From assembly GCA_963726255.1 (NCBI GenBank), contig CAVSBL010000002.1, positions 1,696,001 to 1,760,000 on the forward strand: a DNA stretch of 64,000 nt, in the 5' to 3' direction. How positions within the stretch are numbered: the stretch's first letter is position 1; every line of letters begins with the position of its first letter. Below the pieces are notes generated by a model. The model was not told where the DNA came from, did no database searches, and saw only the letters and a program-made list of their open reading frames with translations. Made by a program: the position numbers and the translations under genes. Positions 4,139 through 26,883 of the stretch are shown here, in pieces. The DNA is from Candidatus Bathyarchaeota archaeon (lineage in GTDB: Archaea > Thermoproteota > Bathyarchaeia > 40CM-2-53-6).

Positions 4139-5352
4139 CTGCCGACTCTTGAAACGAAATCAGCCATCTTCTTGAACCCTAACTCAATTCGTTCCTCAGA
4201 CTCGCTGACGAACGTCATCCTAACGTGGCCACGGCCGTTGTCACCGAAGAATCGTCCGGGTATAACTGCTACTCCAGTCTCTTTCAGGAGTCTTCCTGCA
4301 AATTCCTCTTCGTTTAGTTTCAGCTTCGAGAGGTATGGGCGCATGTCGACAAAATAGTAGAAGGCCCCGGACGGGGTGACTGTTTTGGCTAAGGGGAGAT
4401 GCGTTTTCAGCATTTTTCCCATGAAATCCCTTTTCTTGAGATAGTGTGGGAGAACTATGTTTCTCAGGTAGGGTTCCTTCATGTTTTCTTTCAGGAATTT
4501 CACCAAACCAAATTGGGCCAAACTATCGGGGGCAAGCGTGCTGTACTGTTGCATTTTCTCCATTGAGTCGATTATTTCCTTTGGAGCAAGCGTGTAGCCT
4601 AGACGGAGGCCGGGTATGCTGGCTTCCTTTGAGAAGCTTGAAACGGTTATAGTGTGCTCCCGTGCACCCGGCAGCCGGCTAATCCAAATGTGTTCTCCTT
4701 CGTAGACAATGTGCTTGTAGACATCATCGCTGATTATCCAGAAATCGTAATCCTGCGCGAGATCCACGAGTGCCTTCACAAAGGCCTGATTCAGGATTCT
4801 CCCCGTAGGATTGTCCGGGGATAGAACTATCACTGCCTTCGTTTTCTTTGAGACCGCCTGGTTGAGGGCTTCAGGGCTAGGCTGATATCCGTCCTCAACG
4901 TTGACCGGGAGCCGCTTCGGTTTTCCCTCAGCCAATTCGATCAATTCCCGGTATCCAAGGTACGTGGGATCAGTGACAATCACGTCGTCTCCTGAATTGA
5001 TTAGCGACATGAGCAGACTGAAGATTGCCTCAGTGCCACCAGTGCTCAGAATTATTTCAGAGCGAGGGTCGTAGTCGACCCTGCCGTACTTCCTTGCGTC
5101 ATCTGCGATGGCTGCCCGTAGTTCCGGGATGCCTCGCGTTCCCGTATATCCGCAGCTCTTCAGCGGGTCCGACGTGAGTAGGCGGCTGAATTCGTCGAGA
5201 AAGCCTTGGGGTGGAGGGACGCTAGGTGCTCCTCCACCGAATGATATTATGTTGCCGCGTCCCCGTGCCTCGTCAAGTAGAGCCGCCACTTTGCGGATCG
5301 GCGATATGTGGATTTTCTCCATGCGCCGAGACAGGTTTCTCATCGACTGCAC
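4135..5352 (-). CDS. PLP-dependent aminotransferase class I/II
   Basis: SPDNPTG, DDVY, SFSKEASIPGLRLG, IPGRFFG. Confidence 0.9.
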   Translation of the reverse strand: MQSMRNLSRRMEKIHISPIRKVAALLDEARGRGNIISFGGGAPSVPPPQGFLDEFSRLLTSDPLKSCGYTGTRGIPELRAAIADDARKYGRVDYDPRSEIILSTGGTEAIFSLLMSLINSGDDVIVTDPTYLGYRELIELAEGKPKRLPVNVEDGYQPSPEALNQAVSKKTKAVIVLSPDNPTGRILNQAFVKALVDLAQDYDFWIISDDVYKHIVYEGEHIWISRLPGAREHTITVSSFSKEASIPGLRLGYTLAPKEIIDSMEKMQQYSTLAPDSLAQFGLVKFLKENMKEPYLRNIVLPHYLKKRDFMGKMLKTHLPLAKTVTPSGAFYYFVDMRPYLSKLKLNEEEFAGRLLKETGVAVIPGRFFGDNGRGHVRMTFVSESEERIELGFKKMADFVSRVGS

Positions 5353-5393: not shown

Positions 5394-6680
5394 CTACGTT
5401 GCAGGTTTGAGTTTGGTCGCTCCACCCATGTAGACTTGTAAAGTTTCTGGGATCGTGATCGAACCGTCTTTGGTTTGGTAGTTCTCCAAGATTGCGACCA
5501 AGGCTCTCTCAGTGGCGACGAGCGTGCTGTTGAGGGTGTGAACCCAACTGGTTGGTTCGTCAGGCCTGTCTCTGAACCTGATTTTCGACCGCACCGCCTG
5601 ATACGTCGTGCAGTTGCTGCACGAGACCACCTCTCTGTACGTGCCCTGCCCTGGAAGCCACGCGTCTAGGTCATATTTCTTCGCGGCGACTGTTCCGAGA
5701 TCCCCTGTACAAACGTTGACGACTCGGTATGGGATTTTCAGCATCTGGAAAAATTCTTCAGCGTTCGCAATGAGTTTCTCATGTTCATCCCACGTCTGTT
5801 CCGGTTTGCAGAAGACGAACTGTTCGACCTTCTCGAATTGGTGCACCCTGAAGATTCCTTTGGTATCCTTCCCGTGCGCGCCAGCTTCCTTTCTGAAGCA
5901 TGGGCTCACTCCTGAATACCTTAGCGGCAGTCTCTTTCCATCTAATATTTCGTTCATGTGTTGCGCGAGGAGTGCGTGTTCAGATGTCGCGAGAAGGTAG
6001 AGGTCTTCTCCTTCCACCTTGTAAATGACGTCTTCAAAGTCTGATAGTGCGACAGCGCCCCCAACTGCTTCACGCCGCAGTAGGTATGGGGGTTGTGTTA
6101 ACTTGTAACCTTTCATGTCGCAGAAGTCCAAAGCGAGTCTAATCAGGGCATGATTGAGTTTCACCAGGTCCCCCCTGAGGTAGTAGAATCTAGCCCCAGC
6201 GACCTTCGCGGCTCTCTCTAGGTCGACAAGCCCAAGTTGTGTGGTTAAGTCGATGTGGTCTTTCGGTTTGAAGTTGAACTCTGGTGGTTTGCCCCACTTC
6301 CTCACTTCAACGTTATCATTCTCATCTTTCCCAACCGGCACGCTCTCGTGCATTATGTTAGGCAGTTGCATGAGCGTGTTCGCAATCTTGCTGTCGAGAT
6401 CTGCGACCTCTTTCTCGAGCGTTTTGATTTGATCTGGAATCTGTTCAGCTTCTTTAACCAATTGCGAGACATCCTGGCCTTGTCTCCGAGCTTGAGCTAT
6501 CTGTTCCGTGATCTTGTTCCTCTTGCTTCGCAGCGTGTCTGCTTGGGTTCGAAGGCTACGCCATTTGCGATCATTTTCTAGCAGTTCGTCTACCCAGGGG
6601 ATTTTTGCATCGTCCCCCCGCCGCGTTAGATTCGCTTTGACTACCTGAGGGTTATCCCGAACAAATTTCATATCAAGCAT
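5394..6680 (-). CDS. serS: Serine--tRNA ligase
   Basis: N-terminal coiled-coil arm, FRKEAG..GIFRVHQFEKVE, EVVSCSNC, HTLNST. Confidence 0.98.
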   Translation of the reverse strand: MLDMKFVRDNPQVVKANLTRRGDDAKIPWVDELLENDRKWRSLRTQADTLRSKRNKITEQIAQARRQGQDVSQLVKEAEQIPDQIKTLEKEVADLDSKIANTLMQLPNIMHESVPVGKDENDNVEVRKWGKPPEFNFKPKDHIDLTTQLGLVDLERAAKVAGARFYYLRGDLVKLNHALIRLALDFCDMKGYKLTQPPYLLRREAVGGAVALSDFEDVIYKVEGEDLYLLATSEHALLAQHMNEILDGKRLPLRYSGVSPCFRKEAGAHGKDTKGIFRVHQFEKVEQFVFCKPEQTWDEHEKLIANAEEFFQMLKIPYRVVNVCTGDLGTVAAKKYDLDAWLPGQGTYREVVSCSNCTTYQAVRSKIRFRDRPDEPTSWVHTLNSTLVATERALVAILENYQTKDGSITIPETLQVYMGGATKLKPAT

Positions 6681-9397: not shown

Positions 9398-9604
9398 TTA
9401 ATCACCTGTAGGATTTTTGGGCATAGCTCTTGCTCCACGTCTTGGGCTTTTCTTAGGTTCTTTTTGTCTCGAATCGCCCTTGAGCAGATGTTCATCATAT
9501 TTCCTGAGCCGATTTTGAAATTCTTGACTTTTATCAGGTATGTAGTCATCAAACCATCTAGTTAGTGCGCGTGCCATGGCAATTGAAATTGCATACGCTT
9601 GTCC
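9398..9604 (-). pseudogene. 3' remnant of a 5'-truncated cargo gene
   Basis: Open frame with no credible start; abuts the transposase fragment at a probable deletion junction. Confidence 0.4.
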
Positions 9605-9859
9605 CATAACAAAATGGAACGATTCAACGGAGAGTTACGCGACCGAGAAAAAGTAATGCGCTCACTCAAGAAAGAGGATACACCCATCATTTCAGGAGTC
9701 CAAATCTATCACAACTACATAAGACCTCATGTAGGATTAAACGGCGTGACACCCGCAGAAAAGGCTGGTATCGAGGTTAAAGGAGAAGATAAGTGGCTGA
9801 CTCTAATCCAAAACGCTGCCCAAAGCCGACATATATCAAGATACGGATTGCATACTTAA
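9605..9859 (+). pseudogene. C-terminal fragment of an archaeal IS6-like DDE transposase
   Basis: NKMERFNGELRDR (third catalytic E region), YHNYIRPH..LNG.TPAEKAGI, KWLTLIQNA; the N-terminal region with the two catalytic Asp is absent. Confidence 0.85.
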
Positions 9860-25231: not shown

Positions 25232-25831
25232 TGCTAACGCCTCTAACTGCGCATGAACGCCATAAGACAGCTAAATGTCCCTCGTTCTGATCGACGGCCT
25301 TCTTTTCCGAACGTGTTTGTGCGGTTTCGGCAACAGGCTTATGTGCACGGGATTGGGCAAGTTAAGTTAAGAGAGGCCAAAACCTCGCCCACTATTGAGC
25401 AGCTCACTCGCTCCCACATGAGAATTCCGGTACTGGTCTATGAGCGAGTAAAGACCGCACAGTACTTGCGCTTCATCAAACGGCATAGAGAGAGGCTAGT
25501 TTTTGCTGGGCGATTGGATGTACTTGGAATATTGCTTGTCGGATTCACTGGCTATCTGTACGTCTCGGGGACGAAGTACGGTTCCCTCGTGTTCAATGGG
25601 CTATTGGAAATCTTGACCACCGCGAAATTAGATGACAGACTCTACCGGATAACAGACTGGCGGCAGAAGAAAGGCCAATTGATGGTTTACGTTTCTCGTA
25701 GGTTAGGTCCGTAGTTCCAGACCGGTTCGGAATGCGGAATCGTGTACGATAGGAGCCTGACTGAATTCGGTGAGATAGCCCTCGTTCCCACACGGAATAA
25801 AGGCCGAGAGAGCCTCCTTAGCCCCCGATGC

Positions 25832-26261
25832 AGTTCTGTTAAGTTGACGGGGGTTCAGCATCCTTGTTAACCTTCGGGTGTTGGCTCGCATTCTGAATTA
25901 GAGTCAGCCGCTTGTTTTCGCCTTCAACTTTGATGCCCCCTCTCTTTTCTTATTTCTTACCTTCTTTACCTGCTACATACGCGAGAGCGAAACCGGAAAT
26001 GGTGAGACCGAAAGCGGAAATAGCGCTCAGACCTGCCAGAAACATGAGCGGCTGATATGCCAGGAACATGAGAAGCTTGGATGTGCAGCCAAAGCTGTAT
26101 ATGCAGTCAGATGCGGCGCGTGCTAGGACAATAAGAAGCAAAGGCACAACCAACATGACGAAAAGTCCCACGTATATCAAACCGTGAACCTTCTTGAACG
26201 GCAAAGAACATATCACCCGACGCTTAACAGTCAAACCAATACCCAACAACTTAACAGAACC
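25832..26261. mobile_element. 430-bp non-autonomous IS6-like mini-element carrying one gene
   Basis: TIRs (A/G)GTTCTGTTAAGTTG...TGTTAA...TCGGGTG at 25832-25880 and 26214-26261; perfect 8-bp direct repeat CCCGATGC at 25824-25831 and 26262-26269. Confidence 0.9.
25950..26204 (-). CDS. Small 2-TM membrane protein, cargo of the mini-element (84 aa)
   Basis: TTG 26204 preceded by GGGTGA at the inner end of the right TIR; two hydrophobic helices with a CIYSFGC loop. Confidence 0.65.
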   Translation of the reverse strand: MPFKKVHGLIYVGLFVMLVVPLLLIVLARAASDCIYSFGCTSKLLMFLAYQPLMFLAGLSAISAFGLTISGFALAYVAGKEGKK

Positions 26262-26439
26262 CCCGATGCCAAATGCTTTAAGCAATTAGCGCGGTACCGT
26301 CGAGAGGGTTTCGTGGTAGAAGAAAAACCGGAAGCAAGTAGCGACGAATTGGACGACGAGTATTTGCCAGCTTGCTGCCGCAATGGTCGAGCACACACTC
26401 ACCCGGTATAGACGTTTGGTATCGAACTGGTTATTTCCG

Positions 26440-26883
26440 TTAGACCCGACGCTCGTCTAGCGAAGTAGCGTTCGGTACAATAAGAGCGTAACACAGGTTT
26501 CCGTTCGCCAGTTTCGTAGGATTCAACTTCAGTTTCATTCCAATGTTGATCCGATCTTCAGGCACGGTTTTGTCTATCCAAGCGAAGACCTTCGGGCCCT
26601 CGGGTAATTCTGCTAGTCCTAGGAGGTAGGGTGCTTCCTCTTTGAACATGGAAGGGGTCGCCTCCACCTTGGTGTATGTAATCAGCACGCAGTCTCCAGC
26701 AAGTTCCTTCCATTCAAAACTGCTCGAGAGGCATCTTACGCAGTGTGCTCGCGGAGGGAACTGAACGCAACCACATTCCTTGCATTCGGTCCCGTAGATT
26801 TTTCCTTCCTGCAAATAATCTACGAATTTCGATATCCTAGTCTGACTAGCGTAGGATACCCATCCAAACCTCTCAAAACCCAA
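26440..26883 (-). CDS. DUF35 Zn-ribbon/OB-fold protein (thiolase partner)
   Basis: CKECG..QFPPRAHCVRC, TYT.V, PY..GL.EL; TTG 26883 with GGAGG. Confidence 0.88.
   Translation of the reverse strand: MGFERFGWVSYASQTRISKFVDYLQEGKIYGTECKECGCVQFPPRAHCVRCLSSSFEWKELAGDCVLITYTKVEATPSMFKEEAPYLLGLAELPEGPKVFAWIDKTVPEDRINIGMKLKLNPTKLANGNLCYALIVPNATSLDERRV

Follow-up and report, generated by a model that had tools for sequence, protein, structure and literature searches.

The question raised by this locus is whether a short stretch of archaeal DNA, bounded by inverted repeats and holding one small open reading frame (ORF), is a mobile unit that carries a captured gene and, if so, whether the end of the unit provides the signal for translating that gene. 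The locus lies in contig CAVSBL010000002.1 of a Candidatus Bathyarchaeota archaeon, an uncultured inhabitant of sediment (assembly GCA_963726255.1), from which positions 1,696,001 to 1,760,000 were analysed; this whole stretch of 64,000 nucleotides is called the window, and positions given below without a contig name refer to it. A preliminary description of the window had proposed a mobile cassette of a single gene, one terminal inverted repeat (TIR) of which supplies the ribosome-binding site. The element at 25832-26261 recently moved into its present site, and it is very probably a non-autonomous, cargo-bearing derivative of an IS6-type insertion sequence (IS), for which the closest existing category is the mobile insertion cassette (MIC), or a miniature inverted-repeat transposable element (MITE) with cargo. 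The element is genuine, though as mobile DNA goes it is of a rather ordinary kind.

The ends of the element, the coordinates of which are collected in Table 1, are organized as had been described, with terminal boxes of 15 bp that differ by one mismatch, matching inner boxes and a target-site duplication. The terminal box at 25832-25846 and the reverse complement of that at 26247-26261 are identical at 14 of 15 positions, and a repeat search of the window extended this inverted pair to 19 nt at 89%. The inner boxes (25865-25880 and 26214-26229) are 16 nt each and 88% complementary, and the same 8 bp, CCCGATGC, stand on both sides of the element. Without mismatches, the 14-nt terminal core occurs at these two places only in the window; when up to two mismatches were allowed, 3 matches were found against 0.31 expected, a number reached in 0 of 100 shuffles. 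Each IS end is about 50 nt long and bipartite, with a GGTTCTGTTAAG box at the terminus and, further in, a TGTTAAG..CGGGTG box in subterminal position; the right end of the element reads GGTTCTGTT and the left end AGTTCTGTT, with one tip base altered. The element had no match in Rfam at E ≤ 1, and its predicted RNA fold is ordinary (z -1.22).

The mobility of the element was verified by comparing positions 25600-26500 with the contigs, and contigs only, of four public runs. In X2 and X3, two metagenomes of freshwater sediment that belong to one study with X1, one contig each joined 25821 to 26260, skipping 438 bp and sharing 10 letters at the joint. As 438 bp corresponds to the 430-bp element plus one 8-bp repeat, these contigs represent the empty site. 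In X1, a contig of 1034 nt runs across the filled site (25600-26329) and includes both junctions and the entire element, while X3 also contains a piece (26030-26270) that extends from the interior of the element over the right junction. This piece has the intact-gene allele at 26077, so that the element is present here in more than one variant. The site is polymorphic, empty in close strains and filled in others, and the insertion falls within the spacer of two convergent ORFs. In the sole RNA run (X20), the contigs covered only the flanks, 25600-25712 and 26306-26500. The mobile cassette of the preliminary description was thus borne out, as a unit with no transposase gene, flanked by an 8-bp target-site duplication and absent from close strains. 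A chance inverted repeat is excluded by the empty site and by the existence of the cassette family presented below.

The identity of the element could be deduced from what remains of a transposase gene beside its left end. The remnant shares 19 of 26 residues with the C-terminus of a 391-aa protein that carries SWIM and DDE_Tnp_IS240 (PF13610) domains and comes from a genome of the same genus (L010); there, too, the transposase stop codon lies within the IS end. From the remnant and this placement of the stop codon, the left end is identified as the right inverted repeat (IRR) of the ancestral IS and the right end as its left inverted repeat (IRL). Since the remnant reads on the minus strand, the lost transposase gene lay on the minus strand as well, which is the ORF's own strand. 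Many genomes of the genus contain a match to this 3' piece of the transposase: the element DNA has matches in 14 of 22 genomes, for the most part over query positions 53-107. In the relevant passages of Varani et al. (PMC7986276), the hallmarks of IS6 are an 8-bp duplication, GG tips and a cTGTt motif. Here, the 8-bp duplication is present as CCCGATGC on both sides, and a GG tip and a CTGTT motif are found, with the 'caaa' of the bacterial consensus absent; the 32-codon remnant points to descent from an IS6/IS240-type DDE transposase. By its sequence, the element derives from an archaeal insertion sequence of IS6 type and has lost the transposase gene.

The DNA between the remnant and the IRL is of foreign origin. 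Positions 26206-25934 correspond to L054:3008-3280 with 98.5% identity over 273 bp, L054 being a 157-kb metagenome contig on which the gene is intact, with 87 codons, a GTG start and no inverted repeats or TIRs around it. Over the 6.2 kb compared, the rest of L054 had no DNA match in this genome except for a 77-nt tRNA-like piece, and none of the six neighbour ORFs (0/6) gave a tblastn hit in this genome. On these grounds, the interior is a recently acquired foreign fragment. The captured piece starts 2 nt before the fourth codon and stops 16 nt past the stop codon; the first three codons, the native start codon and the upstream region are missing. On its 3' side, the piece joins the transposase remnant with a 4-nt overlap, GGCA, at 25934-25937. 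Of the four differences between the window and L054, one falls in the 3' flank and three are coding, two of them non-synonymous and one synonymous; three are too few for a judgement on selection. The single ORF had been taken for a captured small gene, in agreement with this match. It had also been suggested that homologues be sought and examined for flanking TIRs: a homologue was indeed found, but its intact copy in L054 is not flanked by TIRs. On the same contig, 31-nt repeats that resemble a tRNA 3' end, at 1282-1312, 2683-2713 and 4961-4991, bound a 2.2-kb module containing the intact 87-codon gene and a gene for a 379-aa secreted protein; ARAGORN finds no tRNA in the repeats.

The native 87-aa protein has hydrophobic stretches at residues 7-41 and 47-77 which, in a hydropathy scan, fit two to three helices, consistent with the two transmembrane helices proposed earlier for the ORF of 84 codons plus stop. 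The frame of this ORF stays open beyond the right end of the element as far as the TTG at 26285, giving 111 aa, which was taken as a chance extension, the intact homologues starting with M/V-K-A. Eleven sequences were listed for the cargo, namely 10 cluster members and P0005. Five of them are 87 aa long and start with M/V-K-A-L-P-F-K-K, two of 90 or 92 aa have the same start and an altered C-terminal tail, one is a 94-aa call that encloses this start, and three are calls of 76-84 aa beginning further in, two of these being the window's own allele. The M/V-K-A-L-P-F-K-K start is present in 8 of the 11, that is, in seven of the 10 cluster members and in P0005. A search of 5.8 billion proteins returned two clusters, with near-identical relatives only, and an exhaustive search of 1.84 billion representatives gave three hits: the cargo's own cluster representative and two long repetitive proteins, which were taken as spurious.

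These comparisons bear on whether the element could be an ordinary non-coding MITE, its ORF being a chance open frame. Such a reading would be in keeping with the small size of the element, with the absence of a Pfam family for the 84-aa ORF, and with a search of 58 further genomes of the same taxonomic family, in which no cargo homologue was found (best E 0.0575). It is contradicted, however, by the intact gene elsewhere, to which the interior is 98.5% identical, and by the fact that 7 of the 11 sequences keep the frame of this gene open over 87 codons, with an eighth containing it inside the 94-aa call; it can hardly be entertained.

The ends of the element belong to a family, which was gathered from relatives and by an end-pattern scan of species-representative genomes. 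In total, 15 complete cassettes of 402-3338 bp were defined, this one included. Perfect 8-bp repeats flank 10 of the 15 at the called boundaries, and an eleventh after a shift of 1 nt; 28 of the 30 ends have a GG tip, AG being seen only at the left end of this element. A profile built from five ends in the genome under study (G000) recovers just those five (E ≤ 4e-11; next hit E 0.34), which come from this element, a second cassette at C2:896495-897017 and a solo end at C2:1363392. The IRL end type is common to the cassettes G014, G015, G011_C4 and L086 and to the solo end G000:C2:1363392. Other copies with the same TIRs and different inserts, for which a search had been recommended, therefore do exist, as the fourteen other complete cassettes carry other cargo. 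The titles of the records hit by the pattern are mostly those of Candidatus Bathyarchaeia metagenome-assembled genomes (MAGs), with single Methanomicrobiales, Nitrosopumilus and Nitrososphaerales labels.

The cargoes of the family, compared with Pfam, are diverse. They comprise a SET-domain protein (G014 and G015), a class I methyltransferase (L086), an SRPBCC protein together with a weak KaiC-like ATPase and a secreted protein (G011_C4), a MazE/AbrB-like protein with two small membrane proteins (G011_C1), membrane-protein cargo related to that of G011_C1 (G026_C27 and G011_C3), a MazG-like protein below threshold (L081), and small membrane proteins (L066, L074 and the second cassette of this genome, named 896k). 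The two SET cassettes, L060:201-654 (G014) and L061:197-641 (G015), come from the same genus and measure 453 and 445 bp; the SET gene (PF00856, E 1e-12) fills their entire interior, and they occupy two different target sites. The 896k cassette (L100:196-718, corresponding to G000:C2:896495-897017) is 523 bp long, with TGGAGGCA as its target-site duplication, and contains the tail of an AbrB/MazE-like gene and a gene for a 75-aa membrane protein of two helices, with its own GGAGGTGA upstream. This 75-aa protein belongs to a family of 58 proteins, down to 56% identity, for which there is no Pfam family. Five complete cassettes contain it, each within a target-site duplication of its own; cargo-bearing units of the family therefore transpose.

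Two further elements were noticed in this genome. One, at L099:214-1480 (G000:C2:48213-49479, outside the window), is 1267 bp long and has related tips, GGTTCCGTTAACTTG / GGCTCTGTTAACTTG, flanked by an 8-bp repeat without mismatches, TGCAGTTC. Its sole gene encodes a 393-aa TnpB-type protein (PF07282, E 5e-24), which would be an uncommon passenger for IS6-like ends. The other, at G000:C2:1055039-1055088, is a micro-element of 50 bp consisting of a perfect left tip and box followed by a truncated right tip, with the flanks TAGGCGCT / TAGGCGCG alike at 7 of 8 positions.

The place of the element among known systems was assessed from passages of the papers cited here. The IS6 review lists only two MITEs and one passenger-carrying IS for the entire family (PMC7986276, 2021); the two MITEs are named MITEBth2 and MITEHarch3 by Harmer and Hall, who also argue that it is questionable to assign archaeal 'IS6' elements to this family (PMC6807381). 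As in IS6/IS26, there is an 8-bp duplication, there are short GG-tipped cTGTt repeats, and the transposase, here a remnant only, is of the IS240-type DDE kind. Unlike IS6/IS26, this element has no transposase gene, and its ends are of about 50 nt and bipartite. The related transposases found here are approximately 380-390 aa long and include a SWIM zinc finger, compared with 213-254 aa for the bacterial IS6 enzymes. MITEs are defined as having no intervening ORF (PMC7986276). The element differs from the IS6 MITEs in carrying most of a gene, and it falls outside this strict definition with an interior that holds 84 of the 87 codons of a gene intact elsewhere. MITEs usually occur as many near-identical copies per genome, whereas there is one copy of this cassette, and there are five strong matches to the end profile, in the genome studied.

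More similar are the mobile insertion cassettes, in which IS inverted repeats without a transposase gene surround a passenger coding sequence, as in MIC231 of Bacillus cereus (PMC6199540, PMC6542083). Cassettes of the MIC231 type are derived from IS231, measure 0.7-3 kb and are supplied with transposase in trans (PMC6199540). Our element likewise has two inverted repeats, no transposase gene and a coding sequence, the latter without its first three codons, and it shares with MIC231 the combination of common ends and a short IS-derived stretch beside one end with differing passengers. It differs in being of IS6 rather than IS4 type, in being archaeal and in the 5' truncation of its passenger; its mobilization in trans is here presumed. 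ISDsp3, the single IS6-family 'tIS' with a passenger gene (PMC7986276), keeps its transposase, and this element does not. Pseudo-compound transposons of the IS26 type mobilize a passenger located between two directly repeated IS copies (PMC7986276); no full IS copies flank the element described here, for which a link to such transposons may nevertheless be conceived. In the passages searched, a 2026 survey of archaeal IS mentions neither passengers nor Bathyarchaeia, and no description of such cassettes in archaea was found in the literature outside subscription journals.

Several results weigh against the view of the element as a mobile IS6-type cassette with a captured gene. A transposase-bearing parent with the same IRL was found neither in 61 relatives, nor in 401 genomes of the class, nor among the 19 end-pattern loci of species-representative genomes; these searches yielded cassettes, solo ends and decayed transposase pieces only. 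The upstream regions of nearby SWIM-IS6 genes differ from this IRL, and the sole intact IS6-like transposase gene of this genome (377 aa) has no such repeats around it. The left tip of the element is AG where the family has GG, and its 430 bp are below the range quoted for MIC231-type cassettes. Moreover, among the 1.84 billion representatives the cargo, as a working gene a putative one, has no homologue beyond its own cluster of at least about 90%. Finally, the cassette with this cargo was found at one site only.

Because the cargo is known at this site only, there is some chance that it was acquired in place, a full IS6-type element having landed here and its transposase gene having later been swapped on site, in which case the unit with cargo would never have transposed. 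Illegitimate recombination would be in keeping with the four shared nucleotides at the junction, and the empty site shows only the arrival of something with these ends. The sister cassettes, on the other hand, stand at several target-site duplications, five for the small membrane protein and two for SET, and no full-length copy was present at the site in the contigs of the four runs, although contigs could miss one. On balance, we consider such a replacement in place rather unlikely.

In the history that we favour, the interior of a transposase gene would have been exchanged for 273 bp of foreign DNA, comprising an 87-codon orphan membrane-protein gene minus three codons, with the 3' side joined at the 4-nt microhomology. 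An IS6-type transposase acting in trans would then have inserted the element between the convergent genes, duplicating 8 bp. Indirect evidence for movement by such an enzyme, along the replicative cointegrate pathway, is given by the target-site duplication and the polymorphism of the site, and one intact IS6-like transposase gene is present in the genome. The capture may have occurred by two illegitimate joins, or by a template switch during replicative transposition. A second possible route starts from a gene flanked by two IS copies in direct orientation, both of which lost their inner parts; such pseudo-compound decay would leave an IRL, the cargo, a transposase 3' remnant and an IRR, which is the order observed. 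It is plausible that the A at the left tip cripples transposition of this copy.

With regard to translation, the motif GGGTGA (26213-26218, minus strand) does lie 8 nt ahead of the TTG at 26204, as had been noticed, but it is part of the subterminal box, 44-49 nt from the tip, and not of the 15-nt terminal repeat. The spacing from GGGTGAT to this TTG is 7 nt, within the 5-10 nt of a Shine-Dalgarno sequence with 16S complementarity. The TTG itself had been regarded as the start of the captured gene. As the intact homologues begin with M/V-K-A-L-P-F-K-K, it is the native fourth codon (Leu4) rather than an evolved start, and that claim fell. Since the box is present at both ends of all relatives, GGGTGAT was not built as a ribosome-binding site. 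The conservation of GGGTGA(T) is explained by transposition rather than by translation, and the box, present at both ends and twice per end, looks like a transposase-binding architecture. The preliminary interpretation was supported in part: the captured mobile cassette stood, and the end as a portable expression signal is at most a possibility.

A role of GGGTGAT as an accidental ribosome-binding site is possible. If the ORF is translated, it would have to start at TTG 26204 or further in, and GGGTGAT would act as a Shine-Dalgarno sequence by accident of the junction, not by design. The stronger proposal, that the IS end is a portable expression signal, with GGGTGAT as the Shine-Dalgarno sequence and TTG 26204 as the start of a functional 84-aa membrane protein, appears unlikely. 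In its favour, GGGTGAT can pair with the 16S 3' end at a suitable distance from the TTG, 84 of the 87 codons and the stop are kept in the old orientation of the transposase, and an ORF begins at or just after the box in four further cassettes (G014, G015, L071 and L076a). In a crude start model, 5-mers of Shine-Dalgarno type stand ahead of the first starts of long ORFs about 2.4 times as often as at internal controls (157/1258 against 195/3777), yet just 12.5% of first starts have one. Public gene calls differ, as P0069 (84 aa) starts at this TTG and P0070 (76 aa) at a TTG 8 codons further in. Against the proposal, conservation of the box also covers the end that lacks a gene start; of the 12 cassettes that could be oriented, 5 by our reading have a cargo starting at the IRL and 7 have one in the opposite direction; the 896k cassette supplies its own GGAGGTGA upstream of its gene; the TTG is simply the native Leu4; an out-of-frame ATG intervenes between box and TTG; and in the predicted fold of a whole-element transcript, the box pairs with a partner at the other end.

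Expression of the cargo could alternatively be driven from outside, if insertion took place a short way downstream of CTTAAAG, a TATA-like sequence of the host, and thereby captured a promoter. A strict TATA-like hexamer at -21 upstream of the IRL was seen in 2 of 11 cassettes, including this one, compared with 1.2% of random 32-mers, and a window with at least 7 of 8 A/T positions within 32 nt on at least one side in 7 of 11, compared with approximately 35% expected. This enrichment is overstated, because the background is genome-wide and not intergenic. On the other hand, the strict motif is missing on the IRL side of 9 of the 11 cassettes, and the best A/T window of this element reaches only 6 of 8. 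The TATA-distance signal across the cassettes is weak, and we hold capture of a promoter to be quite improbable.

The value of the locus is that an intact donor gene on another organism's accessory island, its captured copy, the microhomology at the junction and the empty site are visible together, which is rare for uncultured archaea. The element adds to the evidence for passenger genes on transposase-less IS6-type ends in archaea. If it were true that the end drives translation of the adjoining DNA, the cassettes would be small natural expression vectors. A wider, speculative and in our estimate doubtful proposition is that the bipartite IS6-type ends of Bathyarchaeia and of MAGs labelled Methanomicrobiales or Nitrososphaeria constitute a gene-shuttling system, in which expression signals come from the transposase-proximal end or from a targeted host TATA box, so that even a start-less fragment would still be translated. 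Were it true, small genes from accessory islands would be moved singly within and between archaeal lineages, and the shuttled cargo would range from membrane peptides through methyltransferases, those of the SET type among them, to a gene for a TnpB nuclease.

Table 1. Positions of the element, its parts and the neighbouring features in the window
Feature	Position	Strand	Size or sequence	Remarks
Flanking ORF	ends 25714		153 aa	no Pfam family
Left target-site duplication	25824-25831	.	8 bp, CCCGATGC	single copy kept in empty-site contigs
Whole element	25832-26261		430 bp	terminal repeats and target duplication
IRR-type IS end	25832-25880	.		end-profile nhmmer E 3e-12
IRR terminal box	25832-25846		AGTTCTGTTAAGTTG	tip AG, not GG
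Transposase remnant	25839-25937	-	last 32 codons and stop	stop inside terminal repeat
IRR subterminal box	25865-25880		TGTTAACCTTCGGGTG	
Foreign segment	25934-26206	-	273 bp	codons 3 (part)-87, stop, 16 nt of 3' flank
ORF P0002	25950-26204	-	84 codons and stop	from TTG 26204, native Leu4
IRL-type IS end	26207-26261	.	55 nt	end-profile E 4.9e-12
Out-of-frame ATG	26209-26211	-		directly after GGGTGAT; possible old transposase start
GGGTGAT in subterminal box	26212-26218	-		complementary to 16S 3' end ...GGATCACCTCCT
IRL subterminal box	26214-26229			
IRL terminal box	26247-26261		GGTTCTGTTAAGTTG on minus strand	
Right target-site duplication	26262-26269	.	8 bp, CCCGATGC	
TATA-like CTTAAAG	26276-26282	-		14 nt outside IRL tip, reading toward the element; candidate host promoter
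Flanking DUF35-type OB-fold/zinc-ribbon gene	ends 26440			thiolase gene next

Other traces of IS6-like elements were observed in this genome and its relatives. At G000:C2:1267867-1269880, several IS6-like ends are stacked with a frameshifted transposase gene at CGCATTA(A/G) repeats, adjoining the intact 377-aa SWIM-IS6 gene. SWIM-IS6 genes without GGTTCTGTTAAG ends (L036, L017, L030 and L007, in relatives and at G000:C2:1272035-1273400) are numerous in the genus; each is preceded by paired palindromes and a small divergent gene, which is suggestive of location in another kind of unit or of domestication. Within the window, a tip-like 14-mer, GTTGTGTTAACTTG, with two mismatches and GG before it, is located at 6092-6105, and may be another decayed end, of a related TAACTTG subgroup. 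The plus strand at 9599-9859 encodes 86 aa from the C-terminus of a transposase resembling those of IS6 (rve_3, E 1.7e-4), and it is from this fragment that the match of 9767-9816 to the element DNA stems.

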